DNA of 64,000 nt from a virus. The stretch lies in IMG/VR virus record IMGVR_UViG_3300044769_000068, positions 36,620-100,619 of that record, one strand, 5' to 3'. This document shows, piece after piece, positions 1,986 to 27,228 of the stretch. Position numbers and translations under genes: made by a program. Within the stretch, counting starts at the first letter, position 1, and each line of letters begins with the position of its first letter. The notes beneath the pieces are model-generated. The model was not told where the DNA came from. It saw only the letters and a list, made by a program, of their open reading frames with translations, and did no database searches.

Positions 1986-2617
1986 GGTTTGGGTGCGGTT
2001 GGGTCGATTGTAATATCGAACAATTCTGAGGTAAATGCTAAGTGATAGTTTTTAATCAGTTTTTTGATATAATCAGCCGGAACATTGCCGTCGTGCCAAT
2101 TTCCAGAATTATAAGCGTCTCCAGCTAATCCGATGAAGTTTACGTCGTTTGCTGTGCCGTCTTTGAATATCCTTCTGTTGAAAAATTTGACAACGGCAGT
2201 GATAGCGTATTCATCATTTCCGGCCTGACTGGGCGTAGGCGAGAAGCCCATTTCATAAAAACAAATGAACATTAGTTGGAAGCTGCTATATGAGCACGCA
2301 GCAGCGGATCCGTATTGTTCAACTAGCTCGAATTGCCTGCCTTTACAATATCGACCGCCTATATCATAAGCAGCTTCGTGTTTTGGCTTGTTGTTCTTTC
2401 CGCCAGATGATTCATTCAGACTGAACGCTCCTAGAAAAACCTGGGGATCGACTGGTTCAAGCGTGTCATCAACAACAAAAACTTGAGGGAACTTTAAGTA
2501 TACGGCGTTTCTTTTAATCAACTTTACTAATTCGGGCATTATAAGCTGAGACATAACTACCTCATTCGCCAAACATTTCGTCCGTCTCTTTCTTGGGCTT
2601 GCCATCTCCGAATCCAA
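1964..2617 (-). CDS. Lytic transglycosylase / lysozyme-fold protein (candidate endolysin)
   Basis: SLT-like motifs: NESSGG (catalytic Glu), SSFQLM (cf. GLMQLM) and AYNSG (cf. AYNAG). Confidence 0.65.
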   Translation of the reverse strand: MDSEMASPRKRRTKCLANEVVMSQLIMPELVKLIKRNAVYLKFPQVFVVDDTLEPVDPQVFLGAFSLNESSGGKNNKPKHEAAYDIGGRYCKGRQFELVEQYGSAAACSYSSFQLMFICFYEMGFSPTPSQAGNDEYAITAVVKFFNRRIFKDGTANDVNFIGLAGDAYNSGNWHDGNVPADYIKKLIKNYHLAFTSELFDITIDPTAPKPWQGNIK

Positions 2618-3962
2618 TTTCTGATAGATCTTCTATACTGAGATCATCTGATTCTTCGATTTTCATCCTTCGATAATCTATCTTGCAACCAATTTCTAGA
2701 CGAGCCTGTCCGCTTCTGTTTTTACCGACATATAATCGGAGTTTATTTCTTGTGAATTCTTCCTTCGTCTGTCTAGCTACAAGCACGAAATCCGCGATCA
2801 TAGCTTTCTCCCATGATTCAGATAAATTAGAGATATCTGACTCGGTCTTATCATATCCCGCGCGGTTAATCTGGGAGGCTGTCCAAACCGGGCACCCAAA
2901 CTCAGCTGCCAGAGCCTTCAATTGACGGTAGATAAGACCAAGGTCGGATCTGCGTTCAGCATTCTTTACAGACGACTTCATTAAGTCAGCATAATCCACT
3001 ATAATCAGGTCTGGCTTCTTACCACTAGACATAATCTTGCGTTTGATATAGAGGGAGAGCATGTCCTTAGTAAGGCATTCAGGCGGAAACTCTTTCAATA
3101 ACAAATGACTTTTGGGATTTGCCTCTATAAATTTTGTTACGTAACTATTGATGACGTCCGTCGGACTGTTGATAATATCAATAATCGGTTTGCCTGATAC
3201 AAGGCAATCGTATCTGGTCATAACTTCACTGGCTGTCATTTCAAGAGTAAAATGAAACACTGTTTTGCCTTGTAGTAGAGCCGCGTGACCGATATTGACT
3301 AAGAACAGCGATTTGCCGAAGCCTGGAGGAGCAGCAATGAAATAGAGTTTGTTCGGATATGCACCGCCAACACAAATATCATTAATCCTGTCTGAGAACG
3401 TCTTTATGATTTTGTGCGCGTTGACTAGTGTGCGATCCCGTTCTCTCTGAGCTACGTCATCTAGTTCCATCTCACCAAAGTCGGCCTCGAATGTTAGATC
3501 GTCAAGAAGTTTATAGATGTCAGACTTTATTACAGCGAGATCTTTCTCGTCCATGATACCGAGACTCATATTAGCATCGGCATTCTTGACAGAGGCTACG
3601 ATATGCTGAGCATTTTTGAGAAGGACAAAGCTTTCTAATTTTTCAATGAAATACTTGATGCAAGACATCTCATTTACTTCATTGGCTTCTCTGCGGACCA
3701 TGCCCTTCTCAATTATCTTTTCTAGCTTCTTGCCCCTAAACTTTTCAATGATATAGAACTTGTCTTTGTTGGTTAAACGATCTTTGATGGCTTCTACAAA
3801 TTCATCTTGCAATTCTGTATCGGCTAAAACTGGCTCGTCAAAGAAACGGAACTTTATGGCTTTTTCAAAAATGAATAGATTATACTCGTTTATAGATTCT
3901 AATAGAACGTTGACCAAATTGATGGTCATATCGTTACTAATAGTGATGTATTTTGTGATCAA
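2562..3962 (-). CDS. DnaB-like replicative helicase
   Basis: Walker A APPGFGKS, FTLEM, IIVDYADL, WTASQINR, GKNRSG; the stop overlaps the start of the next gene. Confidence 0.93.
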   Translation of the reverse strand: MITKYITISNDMTINLVNVLLESINEYNLFIFEKAIKFRFFDEPVLADTELQDEFVEAIKDRLTNKDKFYIIEKFRGKKLEKIIEKGMVRREANEVNEMSCIKYFIEKLESFVLLKNAQHIVASVKNADANMSLGIMDEKDLAVIKSDIYKLLDDLTFEADFGEMELDDVAQRERDRTLVNAHKIIKTFSDRINDICVGGAYPNKLYFIAAPPGFGKSLFLVNIGHAALLQGKTVFHFTLEMTASEVMTRYDCLVSGKPIIDIINSPTDVINSYVTKFIEANPKSHLLLKEFPPECLTKDMLSLYIKRKIMSSGKKPDLIIVDYADLMKSSVKNAERRSDLGLIYRQLKALAAEFGCPVWTASQINRAGYDKTESDISNLSESWEKAMIADFVLVARQTKEEFTRNKLRLYVGKNRSGQARLEIGCKIDYRRMKIEESDDLSIEDLSEIGFGDGKPKKETDEMFGE

Positions 3963-4291: not shown

Positions 4292-4990
4292 TTAGAACGG
4301 AATATCTTCGTCTAAGGAAACATCATTGAAAGCAGGCTTCCCAGCGCCTGAAGCCATCGCTCCCTGGTCGGGCGCATCTGCCGCGCCAGCAGCCGGAGCT
4401 CTGTGTGTAGAGCGACTGGCAGGATCTTCACCTGTTGCTTTTCCAGCAGCCTTGAGAGCTCTGTTTTCCTCGTAGATACGAGCATTTTCCTGCATGAAAG
4501 CCCAGGTGAAATGTGGCATCGTATTGACGATCCAGTAAGCCTCTTCCTCGGTGAGGGCAAAGGAAACTGAAGCGCTTTTGAGTGAGGAATAGAGCGTGAC
4601 GATAATCGTGTGGGCGAAGTTGTAAGGAGACTTTGCGTCGTCCTTGCCCTTATTCTCAACCCTCTTCAAGAAGAGGCTTGACTTCTTCTTCTCACCATTC
4701 ACTTCAAAATAGTGATCGATGGCATATCCGTCAGCAGGAACTGCTTTGCCTGCGTTGAGGATATTTTCTACGAACCGCTTGATTCGCAGACATTCTGTGT
4801 AGCCGAAAACCATGGAAAGCTTAAGGTCGTAATCGAACCTCTTTTCCACCGGGTTTCCATCAGGTCCCTTGAGCTGAGGTGCACATTCAATCTTGAACTT
4901 CGTTACGTCTTTGTAGGATCCAAGTTCGAATCTGAGACACGAGGTCTTGTGGTAAAATGTTTCTGAAACAATCGTCTTCGGTGTAGCCAT
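4292..4990 (-). CDS. Putative ssDNA-binding protein, Whirly/PC4-like fold, with SSB-type acidic tail
   Basis: CAPQ...RFDYDLKLSMVFGYTEC resembles the Whirly APA..R.YDW..K..F.LS..E pattern; second beta/alpha repeat ends FALTEEEA; C-terminus LDEDIPF. Confidence 0.55.
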   Translation of the reverse strand: MATPKTIVSETFYHKTSCLRFELGSYKDVTKFKIECAPQLKGPDGNPVEKRFDYDLKLSMVFGYTECLRIKRFVENILNAGKAVPADGYAIDHYFEVNGEKKKSSLFLKRVENKGKDDAKSPYNFAHTIIVTLYSSLKSASVSFALTEEEAYWIVNTMPHFTWAFMQENARIYEENRALKAAGKATGEDPASRSTHRAPAAGAADAPDQGAMASGAGKPAFNDVSLDEDIPF

Positions 4991-4992
4991 TG

Positions 4993-5148
4993 TTATTCTC
5001 CTTCTGGGTGTAGGTCTTTGTATTTACGACCACGTATGGTTAATTGTACAACGGATTGCGTATCGTCCAACGACGGTACCTTAATTATGTAGCCGTTCAC
5101 GTAAATGCCGATTGGAATCTCTACTTTCTCCTCTCCCTTTTTAACCAC
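4993..5148 (-). CDS. Small hypothetical protein (51 aa, MVKKGEEKVEIPIGIY...)
   Basis: GTG overlapping the upstream stop; fills the gap exactly; below the ORF-track cutoff. Confidence 0.55.
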   Translation of the reverse strand: MVKKGEEKVEIPIGIYVNGYIIKVPSLDDTQSVVQLTIRGRKYKDLHPEGE

Positions 5149-5977
5149 TTTTCGTAACATTTGTAGACTCCAATACTATATCTATCTTGCTTTTCTTTAT
5201 CTCGAATACTTTGGATCTCATTTTATCCAAATACTTGTTTCCTCTGTCTTTGTGTTTGGCCTTGTAGTATCTCTTGTCTGTTTTTACCTCTCTGTCTACG
5301 TCTTTTAGAAGAGCATGCGCAAACGGAAACACTTCGATCGCTATTCCTTGAAGCTTAAGTCCTGTTTTGTGCACTTCGACTATGTCTATAAGATACAATT
5401 CTTGAGCATGCAGCTTGCTGTTGAATTGAAACACTTTCTGCAGTTTTGTGTCGTCGATCTTTTGAGTTAAAGTCATTGCTGTGATTGAATCGCATAGCAT
5501 TATTTGCGCCGCATAAGCATTGCGGCATTTGATGGCTAAGAAATTCTTCACATGCTTGTTGAAACTATGCAGCGAAGCATTCTTGAATTCTTTTACATAC
5601 TCGAAGTTGACAACTCTTTTATCTCCGGGTTGTAATTCGCTTATTTTTACGAATGATAATTCTTCGTCCTTCTCTACGAGGATTTCTGTGTCGTCAGTAA
5701 ATAGGGCTGTAAGTCCTAATTCGTCTGTGATAGCGTACATGTCTCTGTAGCCAACACTTTGCATAGATTTTACATAGAGAGGAGTATGACGAGAGCTTAA
5801 GAGGGCTTCAGACGCTAATCTAGTATCAACTCTCTTGCCTTGTTTAAAGTGGTCCTCTTGTAAATTATAGAAATACTTATGAATATACTTCGCAACTTCT
5901 GTCGTTCTATATCTCGGCCCACCCCATCGAGCAGCATAGACAGATATAGTGTGCAGAAAGCTGAGAGGATGAACCAT
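5141..5977 (-). CDS. Hypothetical protein with degenerate Hint (intein-like) domain
   Basis: VGYRDMYAITDELG..FTDDTEILV...VKISELQPGD matches intein block B spacing; IDIVEVHKTG...IEV is block-F-like; catalytic Cys, His and Asn are absent. Confidence 0.55.
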   Translation of the reverse strand: MVHPLSFLHTISVYAARWGGPRYRTTEVAKYIHKYFYNLQEDHFKQGKRVDTRLASEALLSSRHTPLYVKSMQSVGYRDMYAITDELGLTALFTDDTEILVEKDEELSFVKISELQPGDKRVVNFEYVKEFKNASLHSFNKHVKNFLAIKCRNAYAAQIMLCDSITAMTLTQKIDDTKLQKVFQFNSKLHAQELYLIDIVEVHKTGLKLQGIAIEVFPFAHALLKDVDREVKTDKRYYKAKHKDRGNKYLDKMRSKVFEIKKSKIDIVLESTNVTKSG

Positions 5978-6294
5978 TAAAGCAGCCCTGTCCGGCCAAC
6001 AACTTTCCCGCCTTGCTTGGCTGTTGCTTTTCCTGTCGACTGGCCACCGACAATTCCCTGAGGGCCGCCCTGCTTATTGCTGTATTTTCTATAGGCTTTA
6101 GCTTTAATGCTGTTGTTCATGTTAATGCCGCCGGCAAAGTTTATGACTTGATCCTTCTTGTAGATTTTCTGGCCGCACAAGCATCTGCCGATGTCGTCTT
6201 CGTCATAAAGCTCTCTGTATTCGCTGAAAGTAAATATCGTCTCTTCTGATTTCTTGCATTTTGGGCATTTGAATTCGTAAATAGGCATTACCAT
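5977..6294 (-). CDS. FmdB-family zinc-ribbon protein
   Basis: MPIYEFKCPKC...CLCG signature. Confidence 0.8.
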   Translation of the reverse strand: MVMPIYEFKCPKCKKSEETIFTFSEYRELYDEDDIGRCLCGQKIYKKDQVINFAGGINMNNSIKAKAYRKYSNKQGGPQGIVGGQSTGKATAKQGGKVVGRTGLL

Positions 6295-8480
6295 CTCTCC
6301 ATTTCATTCATGTTTTGACCCTTATAAAGTTTGTAACTAAAGTTGGGTCGCAGTAACGTTTGTACATCTGTTTTGAAAACTTCATTCTGAATTAGTGTGG
6401 CTCCCTCTGCAATTATGTCTGGAACAGTGGCGAACACGCCAAATTCTACTTTGGCTGCATCAAGATGTTCATTCGGCACATTAAAGACAGCGGCGTCGAC
6501 ATTAAGGATACATTGCTTTATTTTCAGCTGTCTCGTATTTGCCAAGAATCTAAAGCAGTTCAATACCATAAGATCTGCAGTAGTAGATTGGAATGGAAAA
6601 TTGTGAGCGCTTAAGAACGACTTCCATAGGTTGTCTTTAGTAAGATCGTCCTCACTGAATCTCCGCTTTCTGAAGGATGTCGAGAAAACGCAAGCATTCT
6701 TTTCAAGGTAATCCTTCAGGTTGTTCTTATATTCTAACATCTTTCCATACTTATTATAGAATGCTACCTTATAGCTCTTCACATCTTCAACTCGCACACC
6801 TGCTTCGTTTGCAATAGTCGAATCGCCGGCCAGATTTAGCATGCTTAGAACAAACAGCTTAGCAATGTTTCTTTCCTTTTCGCCTATTTCTCCGCTAAAT
6901 AGTTCTTTTGCGAACCGCATGTAGAAGTCGCCATGTTCATTTAGATCGTTTATCATGTTTTCGTCTTGAACAATTAAAGCGGCTGATCTTAAATCGGCAG
7001 AGTCTAGATCAAGGTATACTAATGTATGCTCTGGATCGGCTTTAAAATGCACAGAACATTTTGAGCCAATTTTCATTCCGTTGAGGAAGGGTTTTCCGTA
7101 GTATAGTCGACCTGAAGTAGCCGAAAATACGAACAATTCAGGGTGCAACTTGCCGTCGCTTGAATCTTGGCACTTCTTTAAGGTGGGCTTTACAATGTTG
7201 TCTAGTTCCCATCCAGAACAAGCAGTTGATCCCTTTGCTAGTCCTTCGCAGTCAACAGTTATTCCATTCCATTCGCTTTCAAGCTTGACAGCCATTATTC
7301 TAGGGACTACTCTAGATGTGAATTTGGCAGCAATTGGGTCGAGCATAAGTTCTTCGTGCAACAATTCTGTAAGGGCATGTTCTCCAGCCGCATCGATAGC
7401 AGCATAAACTAAACTATTTGTGGCAGCTTCCATTATCTGTTCTATTGTATACGTTTTGTAGTTTTCAATGTAGTGGATGTACTTCATAACAAAAGAGTAT
7501 TGCGGGTAGTTAAGCAAGTCTCTAGAAGCAGCTTTAAGATTATAGCCCTCTACTTTTCTATTTTCTGATAAGGCATGAAGAAGCTGCATTCCATCCCATA
7601 TTCTATTGCACTTTAGGAATTCTTTGAAGTCTCTTCCATAGAAGTTGCACAACGAAAAGATGTCAAAGCCACAGTTCCAGGCAATAAATGTTTTGGGCTT
7701 TTCAAACAGATACTTTTCCCAGAGATCCTTTATTTCTTTGGCTTGTCCATTGGCAAGTCCGGCTACAAGACCCGGCAAGCTAAGATTGAACGCGTGGCCT
7801 ACGTTACCTTCAGTAGCCATTGAACCAATTCTTACGCTGTGCTTATTCTTGTCCCATATTTGCAAGCCATTTGTTTCTACGTCTATTGATACTCTAGTCC
7901 AATCGGGCAAGTCGAACATATTGTACAAATAAGCTTTAATTTCGTCGTAGTTGAAGTAAATCTTTGTCCGAGGTGAGAAGCCGTTTTCGACAACATCAAT
8001 TGGCCATTTGTGTCTTTCGGAGACGCTTTTCTGGAGATACGCTTCTCTTACTTCCGATTTGAAGTTGTTAGTGGCATCGACTAATGTTGTCATGAATGAT
8101 TCGAACGCTAGAAAAGTTTCTGGCTTAGACATTGTGAAGTCTATCGGTGGCATGAAAGCAATAAAGTAGTGCTTCTTGTCTCTACGAACGAAATACGAGA
8201 ACTTATGGACGTCCCTTTTAGGGTTGCCCGCCATCTTATCAAATTCGTCTATGTCTCTAAGGATGTGTTTGTATAGATTGCTGCCGAATACAATAAGGAT
8301 CTCGTCGTCCTTGATGTTGTAGCCTCTCATGGAGTCTACTCTATTAGCAACCTTAAGATTGATTTCTAGTTCTTTGTTCTTTTCTTTAATGTCCTTAAAG
8401 ATCTTAACTAGTTTTTCTAGATTCTCTTTCTTTTTAGCTGGCTCACATATAATTGTAATCATTCCTGAACCCGTTTGCAT
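6288..8480 (-). CDS. Family A DNA polymerase-like protein: degenerate UDG-like N-terminus, 3'-5' exonuclease, truncated polymerase domain
   Basis: ExoI IDVETNG, ExoII WNCGFD, ExoIII YAAID; TSGRL, DLDSADLR, RNIAK, NFPFQSTTAD and NVDA map to PolA motifs. Confidence 0.8.
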   Translation of the reverse strand: MQTGSGMITIICEPAKKKENLEKLVKIFKDIKEKNKELEINLKVANRVDSMRGYNIKDDEILIVFGSNLYKHILRDIDEFDKMAGNPKRDVHKFSYFVRRDKKHYFIAFMPPIDFTMSKPETFLAFESFMTTLVDATNNFKSEVREAYLQKSVSERHKWPIDVVENGFSPRTKIYFNYDEIKAYLYNMFDLPDWTRVSIDVETNGLQIWDKNKHSVRIGSMATEGNVGHAFNLSLPGLVAGLANGQAKEIKDLWEKYLFEKPKTFIAWNCGFDIFSLCNFYGRDFKEFLKCNRIWDGMQLLHALSENRKVEGYNLKAASRDLLNYPQYSFVMKYIHYIENYKTYTIEQIMEAATNSLVYAAIDAAGEHALTELLHEELMLDPIAAKFTSRVVPRIMAVKLESEWNGITVDCEGLAKGSTACSGWELDNIVKPTLKKCQDSSDGKLHPELFVFSATSGRLYYGKPFLNGMKIGSKCSVHFKADPEHTLVYLDLDSADLRSAALIVQDENMINDLNEHGDFYMRFAKELFSGEIGEKERNIAKLFVLSMLNLAGDSTIANEAGVRVEDVKSYKVAFYNKYGKMLEYKNNLKDYLEKNACVFSTSFRKRRFSEDDLTKDNLWKSFLSAHNFPFQSTTADLMVLNCFRFLANTRQLKIKQCILNVDAAVFNVPNEHLDAAKVEFGVFATVPDIIAEGATLIQNEVFKTDVQTLLRPNFSYKLYKGQNMNEMERW

Positions 8481-9510
8481 CTAAAACATGCACACTTTCA
8501 AAGTTATAGTTGAAATAGAAGTTTTGAATTTGATTAGTAAAGCCCTTCCCAAATAGCTTTATAGCGCTGTTTGGTCTGATCAAATCTATGAACACCCGCT
8601 GACAGTTGTCTATGTCGTAGGGTAGAATGACTATGTCTGATGATCGCATGTTAACGGTACAAAACATATCGATGCCTTTTGTCATATTTGTTCTAAAATT
8701 GACACCCATACTAGAAGTGCAGGAGCCCTGTGGCGGAACGATGTGAAACCTTCTAGACGTTAGTGGGTCTTCTCCATGGAATTTGATTTCGCTTTCTATC
8801 TTATAGAAGAGACTCGCAAACAAATAGCTATAGAAAGACTTGTAATTGTTGACGTCCATTTCGTATCGGGCTCTAGTTCCCTTTTCCAGCTTGGCCTTGC
8901 GAACGTAGTTTTCGGACTCTTCACATAGACTAGTATTCGTCATGTGCGAGATAGCGCTTTTGCAATCGGCTATTCTGACATTACGGAGTTCCTTGCCTGG
9001 GTAGCCAATGGATGACCCGAACGTCAAGACTAAACTCATCAAATTACGAACTTTATCGTGTATGTCGTATTTAACTATTTCATCAATCCACGTGGCAGCA
9101 TCGTCTACAAGAGTATCGATCCCTTTCGAGGTTGTATCCATCGGCTTAATGAATTTGATTGCACCCAGTTCGTTCTCTATTGCGTCTTTGTAGGCTCTAT
9201 TGACAGTCCGTATGTCAGATAGCTTATGCTCATCGTCACCCTCTTTATTGTATCTTTTCACGATTTCTTTGTCATCAGCATACAATATGATCATGGCGTT
9301 GTTGCACAAGAAATTTATGAGATCCTGCAACCATACAGCATCGTTGTATTCTTTTTCTCCACGAAGACAATTGTACATCATCCGAGTCATGATGCTTCTA
9401 TCGGACACAAAGTAGCGCTTGCTGTAGGGATACTTGTGTAGAAGGTTCTTTTGGAGGGTCGATTTACCCGTCTTGTCTCCGCCTTCTATGACTATGTTGG
9501 GAGTATACAT
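8443..9510 (-). CDS. dNMP kinase fused to a thymidylate-synthase-fold domain (dNMP hydroxymethylase/methylase-like)
   Basis: N-terminal IEGGDKTGKST and SDRS; C-terminal ELRNV, SRRF, GSCTSS, MRSSDIVILPYD and SVHV. Confidence 0.78.
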   Translation of the reverse strand: MYTPNIVIEGGDKTGKSTLQKNLLHKYPYSKRYFVSDRSIMTRMMYNCLRGEKEYNDAVWLQDLINFLCNNAMIILYADDKEIVKRYNKEGDDEHKLSDIRTVNRAYKDAIENELGAIKFIKPMDTTSKGIDTLVDDAATWIDEIVKYDIHDKVRNLMSLVLTFGSSIGYPGKELRNVRIADCKSAISHMTNTSLCEESENYVRKAKLEKGTRARYEMDVNNYKSFYSYLFASLFYKIESEIKFHGEDPLTSRRFHIVPPQGSCTSSMGVNFRTNMTKGIDMFCTVNMRSSDIVILPYDIDNCQRVFIDLIRPNSAIKLFGKGFTNQIQNFYFNYNFESVHVLDANGFRNDYNYM

Positions 9511-9511
9511 A

Positions 9512-12500
9512 TTACCTCGAGATCTTATCGATTAGTTTAAGTTGTCTCAGCTGATTGTAAGAATTGGAGCGCTGGAGTTTGCCGATATACAAATTGTTCG
9601 TATCCATTATATCAATTTTCTGATCGCCATCTTGTATTTCTTTATCACCCCAGTAGTAAACACGGGACATAGATGAAATTCCATCCGATAGCCCAACAAC
9701 GTAATACGGCTTGCCCTTCTTAGATTTCTTCTTTTCGACAGTAGAGATTCTGAAGACAGCAGCTAATTCACCCTCATTTTCAAGATCGACAACATCTTCA
9801 AGCATCCGCAACTTAAAGTCAGGATATTTCTCTTTGATACGATCTCGTTGGCCTACGAAATAGGTGACTTCTGTAAAACTGACATTCATGAGCTCTATCT
9901 CGTTGGCGATAATATCAGAGAGACTCCAAGACACTGGATCTTCCTTGTATTTTCTAATCTTGACGAATTCGTTATACATGTCTGCCCTAGATACTCCGCC
10001 CGCAATAGAATCCAAAGCTCCCGACTGGATAAGTGCAACGATAACTCTTTTGTTTTTGAGCTGCTTGTGATCCGAGTTAATAAAGTCATTAATTCCGGTG
10101 AAGGGTCTGCGTCGTATAATTTCTGCAGCAGCATCGGGAGTTATTCCTTTCACAAATGTTAGTCCGAATCTGATATTTCCATCTTTATCAATGGAGAATT
10201 CAAAGTCTGATTCGTTGACATCGACTGGTAGAATTTTAACCTTATCTCGTTTGATGAACTTTCCTTCTGATTCATAATAGATCGCACTAGTCTGGATGCG
10301 AGAGATATACTTTGCGATAGTTGATGTCCCATACTTGTCTTCTTTTGATCGAGCAGTGTTATTAAGCAGCGCAGTATAGAACTCTATTCCATAGTGAGCC
10401 TTAAGCCACAATTCGCGGAATGAAGTATACGTATATGAGTCAGAATGACTTTTGTTGAACGCATATCTTGAAAAGGCTCGGATTTGTTCCCAAAGCTCTT
10501 TTGCGACCTCCGCTGGCATCTTCTTGCTTGCGTTAGTAACGAACTTGTGTTCCCACGAGTCAACTCTTTTGAGTCTGGCAGTTTCGTATTTAGTTGACCT
10601 CTCATATTTTACGAGGTCTTTTCTTGACTTGTTGATTTCAATCGGATCAAATTCACCGAGCTCTTTGAAAAGGCGCATGAAGTCTTCTTGATAAACAACA
10701 ATGCCATAAGTGCCTTTGAGATAATCGGCGTAGCTTTCGTGTGTAAGATCACGCCAGTTTCCTGCGGCTTTTCTCTTTGCAAATTCAACGTTCATTCCCA
10801 TGTCCAGAGGTCCCGGGCGGATAATGGCGTTGATGGCTGAAAGATCGTCAAAGCATTCTGGCTTGACATCAAGAATAGTCTTAAGGGCTAGATTAGATTC
10901 AAACTGAAACACTCCAAAGAGATCTCCCTTTCTGGCTAAGGCGTACGCTTCTTTTGAGTCAATATCGATTTTATCCCAGTCAATGTCCACTTTGTGTCGG
11001 CTGTTAATAAGACGCACGGTGTCATTAACAACGGCCAAATTATTAAGTCCAAGTATATCAAACTTAACAAATCCTTGACCAGTAAGTTCATGATAGTCTC
11101 CACCTTCTGTGTTGGCTGTAACGATAAATTCTTTAGATCTGATAAGTGGGATCCAGTCGTAGATTGTGACTCCAGATACTACTACGCCTGCCGCGTGTCT
11201 ACCAGTTGCCTTGATAGAGTTGCGGAGACGCTTAAACAATGTTTCTACATTAGGATTCTGTTCAAAAAACTTCTTAACCTTTGGGAAGTGCGACAACAGA
11301 TAATCATACGGCATGTTGTCTAGTTGTTCTTTCTTTCCTTCGGTTGTGTAGATAGTAAATGGAAGATCTTTTGTTATCTCATTAACTGTCTGGTAGTCGA
11401 GGTTGTAGATTCGTGAGGCGTCTTTAATGCAACCTTTTACCTTGCCAATGTGATAGTTTCCAATCGTGGCTACCTTATCGGCGCCATATTTGTCCACAAG
11501 ATATTGCTTGACCTCGTCACGCACCGCGGGCGAAAAATCGATATCGACGTCTGGAAGGTCTTTTCTGCCTTCATCAAGAAACCGTTCAAACAACAAGCCA
11601 TGTTTAATCGGATCGACATCTGTGATTTCTAGCAAGTAGTTAATAAGAGAACCTGCCGCCGAACCTCTGCCTGCGCCTACTTCATAGCGACCAAATTTCT
11701 GTTTAGTCCACTTGATCATGTCTTCTAGAATGAGGAAGTAGTCTACGAAGCCTAATTTGATAATAATATCATACTCATGTCTGCAACGCTGGCGATATAC
11801 TTCATTTTTGCTGAAGCCTTTGACGACAAGAGCGTCCGCTACTTTCTGATACAAAACTCTTGCGGCGTCTTCATAAAGCTTAGGGATCTTGAGGCTTGTA
11901 TCTAGTTGGAAGCTGTCTACTTTTGAGAAGACTTCATACGATCCGTTTATGGCCGCAGCTACGGCTTCTTTTTCGTCTGCTGGAGGGTTATCTCCGAACC
12001 ATCGTCCTTCTTTCCAGTCCTTTATGATCTGATCGAACGTCTTAAGATAGAGGTCCTTTACAACAAACTCCCACAGCTTTTCGTTTTCATTGTCCGCCTG
12101 ATCCTCTTCTGACACTTCTTCCTCTGATGGTTCTTTTTCCTTTTCTTCTGTGTACGACTTCTTTGTTTGAAGCAACAGAATAGCTTCATGCACCTTCTGG
12201 TCGTTCGGATAGAGGTAGTGAGCGTCCGTTGTTACTATCGGAGTGACTCCCATCTCCTTTGCAATAGCCCAAAGTTTTGGATTCAATCTCCACTGATGAG
12301 AATAGTCCATCGACATCAGTTCGATGTAGAAATTGTCACCAAATTCGTCTTTGTACTTTTTCACGTATGCTCTGGCTTCGTCCATCTTATCATGTTCTAA
12401 TAGACGGTTGAGCTCTCCTCCCGCGCATGCAGTCGAAACTATAATGCCCTCTTTGTTTTCTGACAACAACTTAAAGTCGATAAGAGGGAACCGATAGAAC

Positions 12501-13495
12501 GATTCGATAAATGACAGCGAAGTGATTTTGAATAGGTTCTTAAGCCCTGTGTAGTTCTTGGCGATGAGAAGAATGTGATGTCTAGGATTGCCGTGAATCT
12601 TGCGTTGTTCAACTGCGCCGTCTTCTTTGCTACCAATGAATGGCATGAGAGCAGCTCTATCAGCAATCATGTATGCTTCAGTCCCAAAAATTGGCTTGAT
12701 GCCAACTTTTCTGGCGGCTTCGTATTGCTTAAAGAAAACGGAGATGTTGCCATGGTTGGTAAGCGATACAGCAGGCGATTTGTGTTTGAGAGCCCATATG
12801 ATATGTTCTTCCGCGGTTCCAATTCCATCTCGGATAGAAAATTCATTGTGGACATGCAAGTTTACGAAATTCTTGACTTTGATCTTTTTGATTAATTCTT
12901 TGAGATGCGAAAAGTTGTCGCTGGCACCTACGCCGCCCTTTCTAGCAAAGAACGAAGGATGATAGGCTCTAGCAATTGTGTAGTTCCCATTCTTGACAGG
13001 GCCTGCGTAATGATCGAAGGCCAATCCAAAGATGTTGGAAACTGTTTCGCCTAAACATATGATAAGTTCGGGATCGACTATTTCAAGTTCTCTTACGAAC
13101 TTTTGAGAGATGCAAGTAGGTAAAACCTTTAGATCGATTTTGTTGTCTTCAGTTGAGCACTTCTGAATATTTGTAATGTAAACTGTTTCGAAAGAAAGAC
13201 CTACTTCTGCTAGCATTTCTTTCATCATATCATAATGGTTGCTGTCTTCTGGCCCGAACACGTGATTGCCTCGGCGATTATGTGAAGGATTCATTCCTAC
13301 TAACATAACACGCGCTCGCGGATAGCCGCTGGGCTTAACGAACTCTTTATTACATTCTAATTTGAGAAGTGGGCAGGCTTGGCATTCAACCGACGAAGTG
13401 TCTTCTATTGCGTCAACTATGTCAGCAAAATTTGAATCAATTTCTATTGGTTGTACTGCGTAACTAACTCCCGATATTGCTATTGCTTTCGTCAT
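9512..13495 (-). CDS. dnaE: DNA polymerase III alpha subunit with N-terminal family-4 uracil-DNA-glycosylase-like domain
   Basis: PHP (HVHNEFS..DG, TDAHY), GRGSAAGSL, PDVDIDF, GRHAAGVV, KFDILGL, FNKSHS; N-terminal CQAC..ITNIQKC..C..YHPS. Confidence 0.95.
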   Translation of the reverse strand: MTKAIAISGVSYAVQPIEIDSNFADIVDAIEDTSSVECQACPLLKLECNKEFVKPSGYPRARVMLVGMNPSHNRRGNHVFGPEDSNHYDMMKEMLAEVGLSFETVYITNIQKCSTEDNKIDLKVLPTCISQKFVRELEIVDPELIICLGETVSNIFGLAFDHYAGPVKNGNYTIARAYHPSFFARKGGVGASDNFSHLKELIKKIKVKNFVNLHVHNEFSIRDGIGTAEEHIIWALKHKSPAVSLTNHGNISVFFKQYEAARKVGIKPIFGTEAYMIADRAALMPFIGSKEDGAVEQRKIHGNPRHHILLIAKNYTGLKNLFKITSLSFIESFYRFPLIDFKLLSENKEGIIVSTACAGGELNRLLEHDKMDEARAYVKKYKDEFGDNFYIELMSMDYSHQWRLNPKLWAIAKEMGVTPIVTTDAHYLYPNDQKVHEAILLLQTKKSYTEEKEKEPSEEEVSEEDQADNENEKLWEFVVKDLYLKTFDQIIKDWKEGRWFGDNPPADEKEAVAAAINGSYEVFSKVDSFQLDTSLKIPKLYEDAARVLYQKVADALVVKGFSKNEVYRQRCRHEYDIIIKLGFVDYFLILEDMIKWTKQKFGRYEVGAGRGSAAGSLINYLLEITDVDPIKHGLLFERFLDEGRKDLPDVDIDFSPAVRDEVKQYLVDKYGADKVATIGNYHIGKVKGCIKDASRIYNLDYQTVNEITKDLPFTIYTTEGKKEQLDNMPYDYLLSHFPKVKKFFEQNPNVETLFKRLRNSIKATGRHAAGVVVSGVTIYDWIPLIRSKEFIVTANTEGGDYHELTGQGFVKFDILGLNNLAVVNDTVRLINSRHKVDIDWDKIDIDSKEAYALARKGDLFGVFQFESNLALKTILDVKPECFDDLSAINAIIRPGPLDMGMNVEFAKRKAAGNWRDLTHESYADYLKGTYGIVVYQEDFMRLFKELGEFDPIEINKSRKDLVKYERSTKYETARLKRVDSWEHKFVTNASKKMPAEVAKELWEQIRAFSRYAFNKSHSDSYTYTSFRELWLKAHYGIEFYTALLNNTARSKEDKYGTSTIAKYISRIQTSAIYYESEGKFIKRDKVKILPVDVNESDFEFSIDKDGNIRFGLTFVKGITPDAAAEIIRRRPFTGINDFINSDHKQLKNKRVIVALIQSGALDSIAGGVSRADMYNEFVKIRKYKEDPVSWSLSDIIANEIELMNVSFTEVTYFVGQRDRIKEKYPDFKLRMLEDVVDLENEGELAAVFRISTVEKKKSKKGKPYYVVGLSDGISSMSRVYYWGDKEIQDGDQKIDIMDTNNLYIGKLQRSNSYNQLRQLKLIDKISR

Positions 13496-14504: not shown

Positions 14505-15393
14505 CCTCAGTCTTTATGGAGTGATTCATTTGAGCATAGCGTCCCACTAACTTTATAGAACCAAGCTCTCTAAGCTTCAAGCTTCTTGATATTTGAGTAG
14601 CTGTTTTGATGCTATCCAATACCCATTCTCCGTAGATAGCAAGAAACGCTTCTGGAGTTTTTGTTTCATACACCCATTTGTCTAGTTCTGGTACATACGT
14701 TTTGCGGTGCCAAGGATCAGTAACACTGTAAATGTAATCGAACTGTCCTCTGCCCTTTTCGTCAACAAGAAAGAAATTCATGAGGTCTGGAGTTGTTGAG
14801 ATCTTAACTGTCACAGAAGTGTTGGACAACATCCCAGTTAAAGCGGGCAAAGGAATAGTTGATATGATATTGTCTCCGTAGAAAACGTCTTTATCCGTTG
14901 TCACTTTTCTATGTGAGATGTTCTTTATGTTAGCTATTATAATATGGTTGCTATCAGATTTTCCTGCTAAATCCAAACAGCGCTTAAGAAGTGATTTGCC
15001 CAATGCTACTTGAGAAACTTCAAACGCTGTGAAACTAGACTTCCCACCGCCGGTTAAATGTGATGATTCTGTTCCATTAGTTCCGTGTGCTTTGAAGGCA
15101 TATTTGTTCTTAAAGTCGTCGGTGGCAAAATTGCGAACGTCGTCGTTAATCTTATAGCCGATGAAGACTTCTCTTGTTTTAGTAGGAAACCCTAACCTAC
15201 GAAGTAAGGCTTCAGTGTCCTTGTTTTGGTGCAGGAATCTAGGGCCAAGTGGAAACTTTGTGTTAGTCTGGCTTGCGATGTTGTTCGTTATCACAAGGTT
15301 TCTGGTTCTAGTTGATTCTGCAAGGTAATGAAAGACTGTTAGTCCGGCAATACCTGATCCAAGGATCACATTGTCGTAGTTAGGGTTGGCCAT
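14437..15393 (-). CDS. FAD-dependent oxidoreductase, UDP-galactopyranose-mutase-like architecture
   Basis: ILGSGIAG dinucleotide-binding motif, LGPRFLH, IISTIPL, C-terminal VGRYAQMNH. Confidence 0.75.
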   Translation of the reverse strand: MANPNYDNVILGSGIAGLTVFHYLAESTRTRNLVITNNIASQTNTKFPLGPRFLHQNKDTEALLRRLGFPTKTREVFIGYKINDDVRNFATDDFKNKYAFKAHGTNGTESSHLTGGGKSSFTAFEVSQVALGKSLLKRCLDLAGKSDSNHIIIANIKNISHRKVTTDKDVFYGDNIISTIPLPALTGMLSNTSVTVKISTTPDLMNFFLVDEKGRGQFDYIYSVTDPWHRKTYVPELDKWVYETKTPEAFLAIYGEWVLDSIKTATQISRSLKLRELGSIKLVGRYAQMNHSIKTEDVIHWAHNYTRKFNGKKNEKSV

Positions 15394-16466
15394 TATTTCC
15401 TCGCATCGAATGCGTTGTCACCAAAGATAGCAAACAACAGGTCGTCCACACTCTGGTAGGCGTTGTTAAGTATGAATTCCTCGTCGAATAGAGCTTTGTC
15501 TTTATTGCTCAATTTATCGTAATCATTTTCTCCGTATTTAATCCACTCTGTAGGTCCTGGCATCTTAAACCCATGCTCTGCAAGCTCTTCATAGCTAGAG
15601 CAGCTCACATTAAATTCTGAATATTGTTCTTTAGTCGGCCATCTGCCACAGCAAGCAAATAGTGAACTAAAGTATTTTGTCATTCCTTCGGGACCTTCGT
15701 GATAGATACATCTCTTTGCACCATCGCATGCAGGCCGCAAATAGTTTGCTAATAGGGGGAATTTCCGTCCCACAAGCTCTCGAAGAGCAATATGGAGAGC
15801 AACTATCGAGCTTTCCTCGCAAGCCATTAGTCTCCGGCTGCACTGGCCCTTCAAGGCGAGATAGTTCTGTGTAAAGACGTATGAGTGATTTACGCTCATC
15901 GGGAGGAAAGCTCTCCCACTCTGCCATGACCCCTGACCAATCGAGATCGCTGATTCGTATAGGTCTTTCGTTGCTCTTATCCATTTTTCTACCTCGTATG
16001 CGAAAGCCGCATCCGTTTCCATTCTTTTGCAAACGTCCGGGTAAAATAGGAAATCTGCATCAAGTTTGTTGTTATCTCTTGTTCCAATAGAGGCGAAGGC
16101 GGTTCCGATTCGGACTCTTGCATGCTGGTCAAAAGTATGTCGTGGTGTCCCATTAACTTCGAAAGTGAATTGGACAGCTTCAGCAGCTTGAGGTAGGGTG
16201 TTTCCTGTGAGGACTGCAAGTACGATGCGATATCTGTTCTCAGGAGTAAGTCGTTCCCATTTTCCAGTTGATCCGGTTTCATTGTCGCCCCACGTCGCTG
16301 CAGCCATCGAAGCGATTGCACGGTACGGATTCTTTGTGCAATCATTCATCGCAACATACAGCGCATCCAGTGAATTTTTCCAACTATATGTCTTCTTGGG
16401 AGCCTGAGATGGCAAGGTTCCCATTGCTTCTCTCATGTTGTCTACTTGATCTTTATAGTCACTCAT
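15393..16466 (-). CDS. Divergent ThyX-family flavoprotein
   Basis: FTFEVNGTPRHTFDQHARVRIGTAFASIGTRD, GRAFLP and SRRL align with the canonical ThyX at 18527; several catalytic positions differ. Confidence 0.75.
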   Translation of the reverse strand: MSDYKDQVDNMREAMGTLPSQAPKKTYSWKNSLDALYVAMNDCTKNPYRAIASMAAATWGDNETGSTGKWERLTPENRYRIVLAVLTGNTLPQAAEAVQFTFEVNGTPRHTFDQHARVRIGTAFASIGTRDNNKLDADFLFYPDVCKRMETDAAFAYEVEKWIRATKDLYESAISIGQGSWQSGRAFLPMSVNHSYVFTQNYLALKGQCSRRLMACEESSIVALHIALRELVGRKFPLLANYLRPACDGAKRCIYHEGPEGMTKYFSSLFACCGRWPTKEQYSEFNVSCSSYEELAEHGFKMPGPTEWIKYGENDYDKLSNKDKALFDEEFILNNAYQSVDDLLFAIFGDNAFDARK

Positions 16467-22237: not shown

Positions 22238-23179
22238 TCATTCTCCTATTGCCATAGCATCTATGAATAGATTATGCGTAGGCTGCTTTTTATTGACTAT
22301 CTTAATTAGAGTCGGCTTGTCAGGTACAGCCGCTATATCTTCGCACGGCATATCTAACGGGTTGATGTATGATAGATTGATGTGTCCATAGGATTTTTGC
22401 ACCTTATTTACGAACGTTTCGATATGTTTTAACGTGACGTCTTTATCAAAGCAGAGGCAAACGTCTTTATGCGCAGTTTTGCCTCTAAGATACTCTGACA
22501 ATCCCGCATGTTTGCCCTTTCCGAATATGCAAACTGAGTCGTATCCGAATTGGGCAGCTTTCATTAAATTAAACATGGATTCGACAACTAATAGCGTGCT
22601 AGAGTTATTTTTCTCGTATGCATAGAACAACTTCATTTCTGGATCTGACTTTCTAATTACGTGCTTCTGTCTGTCAGGGGTCAAATCTAAAAACTTTCTA
22701 GCGTAATAAGCGTAATCATTAACCAGAACAACTATATAGCCGTAGTAATAATTCCACGGAGTTGTAATTGGCCACAGTTTAAAGTTTGACTTTAGAAACT
22801 TAATGTCGAAGCCTCTCGATACTAGATACAGTCTGGCTTCTTGTGCGACGTTTTCTTGCCGCTCACACTCTCTATCTTGCGGTGGCGTAAGTTTTGGGGC
22901 GTGCGTAGATACTTGATCTACAACAGCAATGCGGCCCTTTACCTCAAATCTTATTCTGTTGCGTCGTAAGAAATCACTTAGTCTGCCACGGTTGTCGCAC
23001 CTATAGCAATTATACGAGTCTTTGGCAAAGCTCAAGCCAAGATGATACTTTTTATCATTACACTTATTGCATCTGACGTTTATTTCTAAACGCGATTTCC
23101 AGTCTTTAGACGGATCGACCTGAAACTTCTGGCCAATTTCCCGTACTATATCTTTAATGTTTGTGTATTCCGCTTTCAT
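22238..23179 (-). CDS. DNA primase (zinc finger plus TOPRIM)
   Basis: CNKC...CYRC zinc motif; VVES and FDKD TOPRIM motifs. Confidence 0.8.
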   Translation of the reverse strand: MKAEYTNIKDIVREIGQKFQVDPSKDWKSRLEINVRCNKCNDKKYHLGLSFAKDSYNCYRCDNRGRLSDFLRRNRIRFEVKGRIAVVDQVSTHAPKLTPPQDRECERQENVAQEARLYLVSRGFDIKFLKSNFKLWPITTPWNYYYGYIVVLVNDYAYYARKFLDLTPDRQKHVIRKSDPEMKLFYAYEKNNSSTLLVVESMFNLMKAAQFGYDSVCIFGKGKHAGLSEYLRGKTAHKDVCLCFDKDVTLKHIETFVNKVQKSYGHINLSYINPLDMPCEDIAAVPDKPTLIKIVNKKQPTHNLFIDAMAIGE

Positions 23180-24921: not shown

Positions 24922-26060
24922 ACGTTTTTCAACCTGCCTACAAATTTTTCTATTTCTTCAGGCGACTTATTCTTTGATTTCAAAAGCTCAGTCCCTTTTT
25001 CAATAATCAGATCGAATATGTTGATCTTATCTATTGACGACGTCATTATTTCCATCGCATTAAGTTCTTCTTCAGAATCAAGGCCTCTTGTTTCAAAGTC
25101 CGTAAACAGATCTTTATATTTATCTAGAAATTCACCGAGCTTCTTTTTGCCAGAGTCGCTGTTAAGCGAATAGATTGTAGCGTAGATATTAGTGAATGGA
25201 AACTTAGCTTTCTCGGTTTCTATGCGAGCTATCTTTCTTTCCAGACTTTCTGTTTTTTCAAGATTGAGCTTAAAGAACAGCGGGCAATAAGGATTTTCTA
25301 CGTACTTAATGTTGCAACCACTGGGTGATAGATCTAATACAGTCAAGCCTTTTCTTTCGGCTGAGTCTGAGAAGTTGTGATTAAGCACAGCTCCTACATA
25401 ATAGAAGTTGGATCCAATTTGACGTTTGAAGTGGATGTGGCCTGAAAATACTCCAGTATAGATGTCTAGATGTAAGTCATCATACGAATTGAATTGGCCT
25501 AATTGGTATGTGGATGAAATTAAGCCCTCATAAGCTTCTTTGATGTCTAAGTGACAGAATACATACGTATGAGTTTTAGAGCCCCGGAACTTTTCTGCAA
25601 GTGTAGCAAACGCATCTTTTAGTTTGTTCGGATCTCTAATATATGGCACAAATATAAAATGGGAGTTTATTTCTGACACAAACTTTACTTTGATGCTGCT
25701 CTTTATGAGCGTAACGCCACTTATGTTTTCTACCGTATCGACCGCTGAAGTTTCTTCGTTCCTATCATGATTGCCTTCTAGAACAACCATTGTCTTCGAC
25801 AATGTGTTTTGCGTTATATCGCTGAGAGCCTTTATAACTGCGTTGTATCTTTCTACATAGAAACGTAAGGCCTGATGGAACGTATCGCCCAGGTCGATAG
25901 CCATCATAGTGCCGGTAGTATTAGAGACGTCAGATATCCAAGAAAGGGTAGAATATAGTTCATCTATCCTTGAATATTCAACTGTCTTGAATTTTGACTG
26001 CCTTACATTGAAGTTATAGATATTGGCACAATGTAAATCGGCGAATAATAATATCTTCAC
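24906..26060 (-). CDS. SbcD/Mre11/T4 gp47-like nuclease
   Basis: ADLH, LGD, GNHD, FCH and GHIH metallophosphoesterase motifs. Confidence 0.92.
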   Translation of the reverse strand: MKILLFADLHCANIYNFNVRQSKFKTVEYSRIDELYSTLSWISDVSNTTGTMMAIDLGDTFHQALRFYVERYNAVIKALSDITQNTLSKTMVVLEGNHDRNEETSAVDTVENISGVTLIKSSIKVKFVSEINSHFIFVPYIRDPNKLKDAFATLAEKFRGSKTHTYVFCHLDIKEAYEGLISSTYQLGQFNSYDDLHLDIYTGVFSGHIHFKRQIGSNFYYVGAVLNHNFSDSAERKGLTVLDLSPSGCNIKYVENPYCPLFFKLNLEKTESLERKIARIETEKAKFPFTNIYATIYSLNSDSGKKKLGEFLDKYKDLFTDFETRGLDSEEELNAMEIMTSSIDKINIFDLIIEKGTELLKSKNKSPEEIEKFVGRLKNVCQLS

Positions 26061-27055
26061 TGAGTAGGCGGTGGTAGGAGCTTATTGAATGGTGTCATGA
26101 AATGGTCCATTTTGGCTAGAATTGTGTTGATGTTTTCTTTCACAAGTATTGACATAAAGTCCATTTTTGAGAACGAAGGTTTCATTTCTATAGCTGAATA
26201 GATAAGCTTTAGACTTTGAGGGCTGAAATCCATATCAATGAGATCAATCAGCTTGTAGTTAAGTTCTAGTAGTTCCTTCTGTCCTTCAAAATATTTACCG
26301 AATTTAGCCTTGGCTTCAGTAACGGTTTCGAGTGCTGCGTAAAACTCTTCTATATTAGTAGGACTTGTTACTCCAGCAGCTTTGAACATGTCGAACAGTT
26401 GCTGAAACTTCTTGTCGCCAAACAGCCTAACTCCTTTAATGTTGTCTGAAGAATCTCCTCTTATTGCTTTGTAAACACGATAGCTTGAAACTGCCAATCC
26501 CTTAATAGGAAACACTTCTTCCATGTTGCATTTAGCGACGTATTGCTTCTTGTGAGGATTAAAAATCTTGTAATTTTCGTTGTCAAGAAGCTGATAGAAG
26601 TCCTTATCATTAGACACAATAGTCGCTGTCTTACCTCTATTAACAAAGTGATGAGCCACAAATGAGATAAGACAATCGCCTTCTATTTGCTTGACGATAA
26701 CAAGTTTGATGGGAAGAGTCTTGAGAGCGTCTAATATGACATCTCTCTGTCTCTTTCTAGACTCAATCTCATTCATCTTGATTGTTAAGTCATAACCCGC
26801 AAGAGCACTGAGATCGATATCTCTGTTGGCCTTGTAGTCTTTAAAGAGAGCTTTCTTTCTTACGTCTCGCCCGAAGTCAAATACAATGTAGACTTCTTCT
26901 GGCTTTTCGTCGTCTACAAGCTTACGGAGGTGTTGAAGGAACACGTAAATAGCTGTAGTATCTTGACTTTTGGCATTTTGAAGAACTGTATCGGTCATAG
27001 AGAAGAAGGCTCTAACGAACAGGTTGGAGCCGTCGCATATTAATACGTCACTCAT
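26057..27055 (-). CDS. 5'-3' flap exonuclease (T4 RNase H-like)
   Basis: ICDGSNL, VFDFG, YKANR, EGDC, SNDKDFYQL, GDSSDNIKGV; start reassigned to ATG 27055 (TAATG overlap). Confidence 0.92.
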   Translation of the reverse strand: MSDVLICDGSNLFVRAFFSMTDTVLQNAKSQDTTAIYVFLQHLRKLVDDEKPEEVYIVFDFGRDVRKKALFKDYKANRDIDLSALAGYDLTIKMNEIESRKRQRDVILDALKTLPIKLVIVKQIEGDCLISFVAHHFVNRGKTATIVSNDKDFYQLLDNENYKIFNPHKKQYVAKCNMEEVFPIKGLAVSSYRVYKAIRGDSSDNIKGVRLFGDKKFQQLFDMFKAAGVTSPTNIEEFYAALETVTEAKAKFGKYFEGQKELLELNYKLIDLIDMDFSPQSLKLIYSAIEMKPSFSKMDFMSILVKENINTILAKMDHFMTPFNKLLPPPTQ

Positions 27056-27228
27056 TATGAATCGTCCCTTGCGCCGTATTTTTCCAAGAATCTTTCTATG
27101 TCCCACAGAGTTTCTATTGGAATACCCCACGAAGTATCAACAATGGCGTTCTCTTGTTTCCAACCTTTGTCACGAGTCTCCATAAGTAGTTCTACGGCTC
27201 TATGCAAAAAGTCTTTGTTGGTCTTCAT
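27055..27228 (-). CDS. Small hypothetical protein (57 aa, MKTNKDFLHRAVELL...)
   Basis: ATGA overlap with the sigma gene stop and TAATG overlap with the nuclease start; not in the ORF track. Confidence 0.65.
   Translation of the reverse strand: MKTNKDFLHRAVELLMETRDKGWKQENAIVDTSWGIPIETLWDIERFLEKYGARDDS

Follow-up and report, generated by a model that had tools for sequence, protein, structure and literature searches.

The window analysed here is a 64,000-nucleotide stretch of viral DNA, corresponding to positions 36,620 to 100,619 of the IMG/VR record IMGVR_UViG_3300044769_000068. At positions 6288 to 8480, on the minus strand, it carries a gene for a DNA polymerase of family A (hereafter the PolA-like protein) in which the thumb is reduced to a short stub and the catalytic residues of the proofreading exonuclease and of the polymerase are retained, and which belongs to a conserved replication module that also encodes a complete DnaE. 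The gene was delimited by the list of open reading frames (ORFs), its translation and a match to Pfam DNA_pol_A. Counted from M1 (8480) it encodes 730 residues free of stops and it ends with the stop codon at 6288-6290; the true start may rather be M7 (8462), where relatives begin. The source record is linear, 116 kb long and estimated to be 71% complete, and relatives measure 154-163 kb.

Homologues of the PolA-like protein fall into 38 clusters (46-78% identity; 723-739 residues long, bar one fragment), and the family set used throughout this work counts 39 members spanning 37-100% identity. The ratio of non-synonymous to synonymous substitution rates (dN/dS) is 0.028 for the pair of loci L004/L005 and 0.07 for the pair L007/L008; by domain it amounts to 0.02 for the N-terminal domain, 0.02 for the exonuclease and 0.04 for fingers and palm. 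Uniform length, the lack of stops and a dN/dS of about 0.03 rule out a pseudogene. An earlier sequence-only reading of this DNA had named decay of the gene in relatives as an outcome that would speak against it; in the relatives all domains are found under constraint.

Fold and thumb of the PolA-like protein

The product of the ORF is a family A polymerase with the Klenow fold. Pfam DNA_pol_A scores 89.6 bits against a cut-off of 34.3 and covers only positions 95-350 of the 381 in the profile. An AlphaFold model of the protein (predicted local distance difference test, pLDDT, 87.5; predicted template-modelling score, pTM, 0.86) contains exonuclease, palm and fingers in a Klenow-type arrangement, which superposes on the Klenow, Bst and Taq polymerases with Z 31-33 and a root-mean-square deviation (rmsd) of 2.8-3.3 Å, and Foldseek matches it to family A polymerases at E 3e-20. 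In an exhaustive structural scan (VIA), 482-509 residues were matched to 4dsj and 1kfs over model residues 167-728. Against the Klenow fragment (Z 31, rmsd 2.8 Å) about 508 residues aligned, the model having 562 and Klenow 601, and about 95 Klenow residues were left without a partner.

The segment that falls short is the thumb, of which a stub remains at residues 411-442 (7155..7250, minus strand), as delimited by alignment count, by the helices of the model and by the unmatched Pfam positions 1-94. The motif GITVD occupies residues 406-410 and GKLHP residues 443-447, which leaves 32 residues between them; the sequence-only reading had counted about 35 and had pointed to the much longer thumb of PolA enzymes. 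Measured from the palm strand (column of D410) to the Gly before motif 2 (column of G443), the segment is 30-33 residues long in all 39 family members, compared to 92-247 residues (median 106) in the 70 nearest PolAs, so that the alignment which could have revealed a normal thumb reveals none. Structure prediction, which the same reading had proposed for confirming the loss, gave stub helices only: the two long thumb helices are replaced in the model by one of 6 residues (411-416) and one of 16 (423-438). Altogether, about 70 residues of the DNA-gripping thumb have been lost in this family.

Residue equivalences were derived from HMMER alignments to the Taq and Aquifex Pol I structures and from a second alignment, made with MAFFT, in which 11 family members were set against the 70 PolA representatives that scored best in a library of 1.84 billion proteins. 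The anchor columns G406, R458, D491, R537, K541 and D662 are identical in 70/70 of these outgroup proteins. Together with the start of the Pfam match at position 95 and the unpaired Klenow residues, these anchors rule out a thumb hidden elsewhere in the protein as well as an alignment artefact. The truncation is real and lies far outside ordinary PolA variation.

Exonuclease and polymerase active sites

The 3'-5' exonuclease domain (residues 166-380; 7341..7985, minus strand) aligns to Klenow from residue 324 onward and has the intact set of DEDDy residues, with D200 and E202 in Exo I, N269 and D273 in Exo II, and Y359 and D363 in Exo III. These residues are kept in 39/39 family members, the position of D273 being occupied by D or E, and PF01612 is annotated on some of the homologues. 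The earlier statement that all three exonuclease motifs are intact thus extends from the window protein to the entire family.

Motif 2, fingers and palm follow at residues 446-730 (6291..7145, minus strand), marked by R458, D491, R537/K541, N627/Q631/D636 and D662. Invariant in all 39 members are the metal-binding D491 and D662, the triphosphate-binding R537 and K541, R458 of motif 2, and N627 and D636 of motif 6; Q631, the equivalent of Klenow Q849, is retained in most of them. Around these residues the nucleotide pocket has been remodelled. Motif A reads DLDSADLR (491-498), in which D491 is the equivalent of Klenow D705 and D496 that of E710, and motif B combines the preserved R537 and K541 with L545, N549 and L550 in place of F762, Y766 and G767. 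In both motifs our alignments bear out the sequence-only reading, which had noted the retained D705 equivalent and the Asp at the E710 position as well as the loss of the motif B tyrosine beside a conserved Arg and Lys. The residues replaced in the window protein prevail in the outgroup, where those equivalent to H881, Y766 and Q677 are almost universal, as becomes clear for Y766 (Asn in the window; Tyr in 68 of 70 outgroup proteins), G767 (Leu; Gly in 65), F762 (Leu; Phe in 62), H881 (Val, and V/I/A within the family; His in all 70), E710 (Asp; Glu in 68), Q708 (Ser; Gln in 60) and Q677 (Asn; Gln in 65). In addition, the SS that follows the GRL of motif 2 has become YY or LY in the family.

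For motif C the earlier reading stands in part. The motif is indeed NVDA (660-663), with D662 as the equivalent of Klenow D882, but the Ala at the E883 position, which had been regarded as odd, is common in relatives: the 70 nearest PolAs have S in 32, E in 22 and A in 15 cases at this position. The real oddity of the motif is the replacement of H881 by V, I or A.

The deepest members of the family, P0041 (46% identity) and P0042 (37%), have a canonical motif A (SQ.E) and motif C (HDS), yet their thumb is a stub of 32-33 residues. The tyrosine equivalent to Y766 is retained in P0041 only, and the histidine equivalent to H881 in P0041 and P0042 only. As these two proteins combine a short thumb with canonical active-site motifs, thumb loss appears to have preceded the remodelling of the pocket.

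The N-terminal domain

Residues 1-165 (7986..8480, minus strand) form an alpha/beta domain that is probably a vestigial UDG-like (uracil-DNA glycosylase-like) domain, devoid of the catalytic motifs and of the iron-sulfur cysteines. It is modelled as a three-layer alpha/beta fold (pLDDT 90), the best Foldseek match of which is the family-4 UDG 4zbx, at a weak E of 0.017 and a template-modelling (TM) score of 0.39. In the exhaustive structural scan UDGs were recovered at Z 5.3 (1l9g) and 5.1 (2d3y), and MogA-like folds scored higher, at 6.6. At the level of sequence, Pfam UDG (PF03167) gave no match to the PolA-like protein at E values up to 1, and comparison of the family N-terminus with UDG domains in hhalign returned a probability of 0.2%. 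Neither of the UDG motifs GE[AG]PG and HPS was found in the domain, which has CEPAK at 12-16 and MPP at 110-112 instead, and the four iron-sulfur cysteines are not present, residues 1-165 containing a single Cys. The segments ILIVFGS (61-67) and FIAFMPP (106-112), described earlier as degenerate UDG sequence, are there as reported, but their identity as UDG is weakly supported and the profile test was negative. Position in the protein and the architecture of relatives make it plausible that the domain is a UDG remnant. Since it is strongly conserved, it must have some function.

Relatives of the PolA-like family

In an exhaustive profile search of the library of 1.84 billion proteins, full-length matches were confined to two 50%-identity representatives. 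Outside the family the profile score falls from 725 to 164 bits, and the remaining matches align from about residue 434 on, past the missing thumb. All family members come from metagenomes. Among 50,697 deposited phage genomes no close relatives were found, the fingers and palm alone matching ordinary PolAs at 21-27% identity. A UDG domain is carried N-terminally by 8 of the 10 best and 15 of the 20 best outgroup profile matches; the best viral structures in BFVD are N4-like and Herelleviridae PolAs of 880-1055 residues, and a UDG-PolA cluster of the Atlas superposes on residues 3-730 with a TM score of 0.75. A quick tree recovers the family as a monophyletic group on a long stem of 1.3 substitutions per site, with a support of only 0.29 for the node joining it to its sister.

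Gene neighbourhood and other replication genes of the phage

The PolA-like gene is part of a replication module with the order DnaE, (kinase), PolA-like, Zn-ribbon, orf278, orf232 and DnaB, all on the minus strand. The DnaE gene (9512..13495), identified by Pfam, PHP ligands and synteny, encodes a UDG-PHP-DnaE protein that is the likely replicase. It is followed by a gene for a deoxynucleoside monophosphate (dNMP) kinase-like protein with an extra C-terminal domain (8443..9510), which separates it from the PolA-like gene and overlaps the start of the latter. On the other side, the gene of a 105-residue Zn-ribbon protein (5977..6294) begins within the end of the PolA-like gene, its start overlapping the PolA-like stop by 7 nucleotides, and is conserved directly downstream. 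Next come orf278 (5141-5977; 278 residues) and orf232 (4292-4990; 232 residues), both lacking a Pfam or PHROG match, and a DnaB-like helicase gene (2562..3962; Pfam and synteny), with which the conserved module ends. This arrangement is constant: DnaE lies upstream of the PolA-like gene in 15/15 loci with enough upstream DNA, either adjacent or separated by the kinase gene, in which the extra C-terminal domain may be present or missing, and Zn-ribbon, orf278, orf232 and DnaB are found downstream in every locus that reaches far enough. The PolA-like gene had been described as lying beside a full DnaE; the DnaE is indeed complete, comprising PHP, core, fingers and HhH, but in the window the two genes are not immediately adjacent, one gene lying between them.

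In the PHP domain of DnaE, all nine metal-ligand positions match those of Taq and M. tuberculosis DnaE. PHP domains with such metal sites are active proofreaders and, because all nine ligands are kept, this DnaE probably edits for itself. Its N-terminus (12881-13495, minus strand) belongs to the UDG superfamily (Pfam UDG, E 6e-13), with GMNPS rather than GEAPG as motif A. The fusion of UDG to DnaE is present only in the window and in five relatives (L006, L007, L011, L013 and L018) and absent from the deeper branches L002, L016 and L019; in deeper relatives DnaE measures 1109-1125 residues.

The Zn-ribbon protein has a CxxC...CxC pattern and a conserved segment Q.INF.G.INMN...RKYSNKAGGP, and gave no informative family match. 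It is translationally coupled to the PolA-like gene and is a candidate for a partner subunit. The C-terminal domain of the dNMP-kinase-like protein (8443-9510) comprises about 200 residues without a Pfam match and recurs in L004, L005, L013 and L018; other relatives have at this position the kinase alone, or nothing.

The module lies within a minus-strand block, from position 1 to 35.7 kb, of replication and nucleotide metabolism genes. This block encodes a stand-alone 5'-3' exonuclease (FEN; 26057..27130, minus strand; 5_3_exonuc_N at 102.7 bits, 5_3_exonuc and phrog_107) and a DnaG-like primase (22238..23179, minus strand; phrog_47 at E 3.4e-14, with a weak match to the DnaG Zn-ribbon), the presence of which rules out the PolA-like protein as the primase. 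Toprim_2 and Prim-Pol Pfam domains gave no match in the record. Two ThyX-like proteins are encoded as well, one divergent (15393-16466, minus strand; 357 residues; Thy1 E 7.5e-12) and one canonical (18527-19153, minus strand; 208 residues; Thy1 E 2e-69), and beside them lie a dCMP deaminase gene and a second thymidylate-kinase-like gene. Ribonucleotide reductase, SbcCD and a UvsX-like recombinase complete the block, and an ATP-dependent ligase is encoded elsewhere in the record. PolB, a DnaQ-like exonuclease (epsilon) and a second PolA were sought and not found in the 116-kb record, which is about 71% complete.

The source is a tailed phage and has genes for a portal, a large terminase, a major capsid protein and a tail sheath. 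Its major capsid protein (37983-39446, plus strand) has about 40% identity to the counterparts in SPO1-like (Herelleviridae) phages of Bacillus, Exiguobacterium and Lysinibacillus, among them SP-10. By its capsid the phage is thus placed near the SPO1-like group, though its likely replicase is DnaE and not a UDG-PolA.

Function of the PolA-like protein

Since a complete DnaE stands in the same conserved module, the thumb is a stub and the nucleotide pocket is remodelled, it is very unlikely that the PolA-like protein is the main replicase of this phage, and on this point we concur with the sequence-only reading. The invariance of the catalytic Asp pair, of the Arg and Lys of motif B and of the Arg of motif 2 argues that the protein still polymerises and is not a nuclease only, and since neither site has lost a catalytic residue, an enzyme active both as polymerase and as exonuclease is more likely than a scaffold. 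Of the roles suggested by the sequence-only reading, that of a distributive polymerase suits the data best, and a ribo-tolerant or base-selective enzyme is conjecture.

With moderate confidence, we predict a distributive, proofreading accessory polymerase that serves the DnaE replisome as the Klenow half of a split Pol I. DnaE, DnaB, the DnaG-like primase, FEN and ligase already form a bacterial-style set, and the PolA-like protein fits the Klenow slot in it. Deletion of the tip of the Klenow thumb is reported, by Minnick and colleagues in 1996, to lower DNA affinity and processivity, and taken together with the stub thumb this leads us to predict a weak grip and distributive synthesis. A stub of 32 residues would hold the primer-template weakly, such that few nucleotides would be added per binding event, which would be tolerable for gap filling and incompatible with replicating about 160 kb. 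The task of the protein would accordingly be to close the short gaps left when primers are removed and to fill repair patches, not to synthesise whole genomes, and alongside the separate FEN and ligase it would do the work of the Klenow part of Pol I in maturing the lagging strand and in repair. The family probably descends from a UDG-PolA such as serves SPO1-like and N4-like phages as replicase, and would have been demoted once DnaE took over.

A number of points weigh against this prediction. The crown group of the family, to which the window belongs, has lost residues that position the nucleotide and the primer end (Y766N, F762L, H881V, E710D and Q677N), and with these replacements the activity could be low or of a different kind. 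Compared over the same loci, the PolA-like protein is 45-65% and DnaE 56-67% identical, which makes the former unexpectedly conserved for a mere helper. As the record is incomplete, other polymerases could lie outside it. Moreover, a partner, be it the Zn-ribbon protein, the N-terminal domain or a clamp, could restore processivity.

Loss of the thumb might also have shifted the balance between polymerase and exonuclease, turning the protein into an exonuclease-dominant editor that proofreads for DnaE in trans or processes DNA ends, its polymerase domain acting mostly as a DNA-binding platform. The invariant exonuclease residues, the permanent linkage to the DnaE gene and the failure to find an epsilon subunit in the record all suit such an editor, and a report on POLIB of T. 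brucei (PMC9731263) indicates that thumb alterations can make a PolA exonuclease dominant. However, with its complete PHP metal site DnaE has no obvious need of an editor in trans, and R537, K541 and both metal-binding aspartates, superfluous in a pure nuclease, are invariant from 37 to 100% identity. The first of these observations weakens the trans-acting proofreader for DnaE that the sequence-only reading had put forward, and we consider the exonuclease-dominant editor unlikely.

Another explanation starts from the pocket, in which E710D, Q708S, F762L, Y766N and H881V would suit ribonucleotides or a modified pyrimidine nucleotide made by the products of neighbouring nucleotide-metabolism genes. 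The replacements all fall in the lining of the pocket for nucleotide and primer end and have become fixed throughout the crown group, and the operon contains the two ThyX-like genes, the dCMP deaminase and dNMP kinases. Yet the remodelled pocket is also present in the loci L002 and L016, which have neither the UDG-DnaE fusion nor the gene for the kinase with the C-terminal domain, and therefore does not track these genes. Moreover, it is DnaE, and not the PolA-like enzyme, that would have to copy an entire modified genome, and modified DNA in this phage is itself conjecture. A changed choice of substrate is improbable as the explanation.

More speculatively, the thumb-less PolA could be an obligate subunit of a two-polymerase replisome, either docking on DnaE or held by the Zn-ribbon protein or the former UDG domain as a substitute clamp, with the remodelled pocket reserved for a task beyond the reach of DnaE, for instance primer extension, the bypass of abasic or modified positions that UDG-DnaE has left behind, or the insertion of a non-canonical nucleotide; we grant this only a small chance.

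Still less probable is a true replicase or co-replicase, in which the grip of the thumb would be replaced by the N-terminal domain, the Zn-ribbon protein, DnaE or a clamp, and leading and lagging strands might be shared as they are by PolC and DnaE in Bacillus. The PolA-like gene equals DnaE in conservation and has a constant place in the core replication module, and its N-terminal domain is under the strong constraint given above. The UDG domain of UDG-PolAs lies between the exonuclease and polymerase domains and has been proposed as a possible processivity module (PMC10201439), and the N-terminal domain of divPolA2 has likewise been proposed to act as a thumb (PMC11348598). The loss of Y766 and H881, on the other hand, would be unusual in a high-fidelity replicase. 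Finally, a catalytically dead remnant kept as a scaffold of the replisome, as the loss of several canonical pocket residues might suggest, is hardly credible given the invariant metal- and phosphate-binding residues of both sites and a dN/dS of 0.02-0.04 in every domain.

Comparison with known polymerases

The nearest relatives of the PolA-like protein, by sequence as well as by viral structure, are the UDG-PolA fusions known from N4-like phages (cluster 17), SPO1 and SP-10, and SP15-like phages such as YerA41 and phiLo (Czernecki 2023, PMC10201439; Missoury 2026, PMC13697223). In SP-10 the replicase is such a UDG-PolA (PMC10201439). These proteins share with the PolA-like family the order of an N-terminal alpha/beta domain, a DEDDy exonuclease and a polymerase, and in N4-like members the UDG domain is inactivated too. 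Unlike the PolA-like protein, they are sole replicases of 800-1100 residues, in which the thumb is full or even enlarged and H881 and Y766 are canonical; the PolA-like family has the 32-residue stub, an N-terminus without UDG profile match, the remodelled pocket and an accompanying DnaE, and in part of its clade the UDG domain sits on DnaE instead.

Two divergent second PolAs of phages, divPolA1 and divPolA2, have been described by Yutin et al. 2024 (PMC11348598). The first of these, from Flavobacterium phage immuto-like phages, resembles the PolA-like protein in its truncated thumb, in the conserved catalytic residues of the palm and in being additional to a regular polymerase of family A, B or C; the phages are 155-190 kb in size and the gene lies upstream of replication genes including DnaB. 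It differs by its 441 residues, by the replacement of every exonuclease Asp and by the lack of an N-terminal domain, and the regular polymerase gene lies elsewhere, next to GroES/GroEL, instead of adjoining divPolA1. Identity of the PolA-like protein with divPolA1 was rejected by comparison with one divPolA1 sequence (MW353176 gene 1), against which BLASTP gave E 0.03 and hhalign a probability of 2%, and by the intact exonuclease found here. The second, divPolA2 of barbaviruses, is also a second PolA in which no thumb can be recognised; Yutin et al. judged that it is not the replicase and proposed that a globular domain at its N-terminus takes the place of the thumb. It is set apart by its description, as it has no exonuclease domain and a variable neighbourhood, accompanies PolB and resembles single-subunit RNA polymerases.

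Bacterial Pol I, in turn, has the same Klenow fold with exonuclease and polymerase sites (Z 31) and works alongside DnaE, DnaB, DnaG, FEN and ligase, and the coexistence of the same gene set in the phage suggests the same division of labour as between Pol I and Pol III. Unlike the phage protein, it has its thumb complete, its 5'-3' nuclease fused and its motifs canonical; the phage encodes FEN in a gene of its own, and its PolA-like protein lacks the thumb.

A second PolA poor in thumb is thus already a known concept for large phages. The PolA-like family adds an instance of its own that has apparently not been described before, and it stands apart by its intact proofreading, its vestigial N-terminal domain and its fixed linkage to DnaE. 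It would be the third distinct case beside the two of 2024 and the first with intact proofreading and a fixed place beside DnaE.

The thumb is regarded as a standard component of right-hand polymerases. A clade that lacks it under strong purifying selection, with both active sites kept, constitutes a natural experiment on the function of the thumb, and might show how a polymerase is retooled once it has been displaced as the replicase. Practical uses are also conceivable for a compact PolA enzyme that proofreads, works distributively and has an altered nucleotide pocket. In SPO1-like phages, there appears to have been a hand-over of replication from a UDG-PolA replicase to DnaE, in some members to UDG-DnaE. 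In one of the loci with this fusion, L013 (6724-8937), the match to DnaE ends at residue 818 and about 2.2 kb precede the kinase gene where about 0.9 kb would be enough for the remainder of DnaE; this DnaE region may hold an intein, a homing endonuclease or another insertion.

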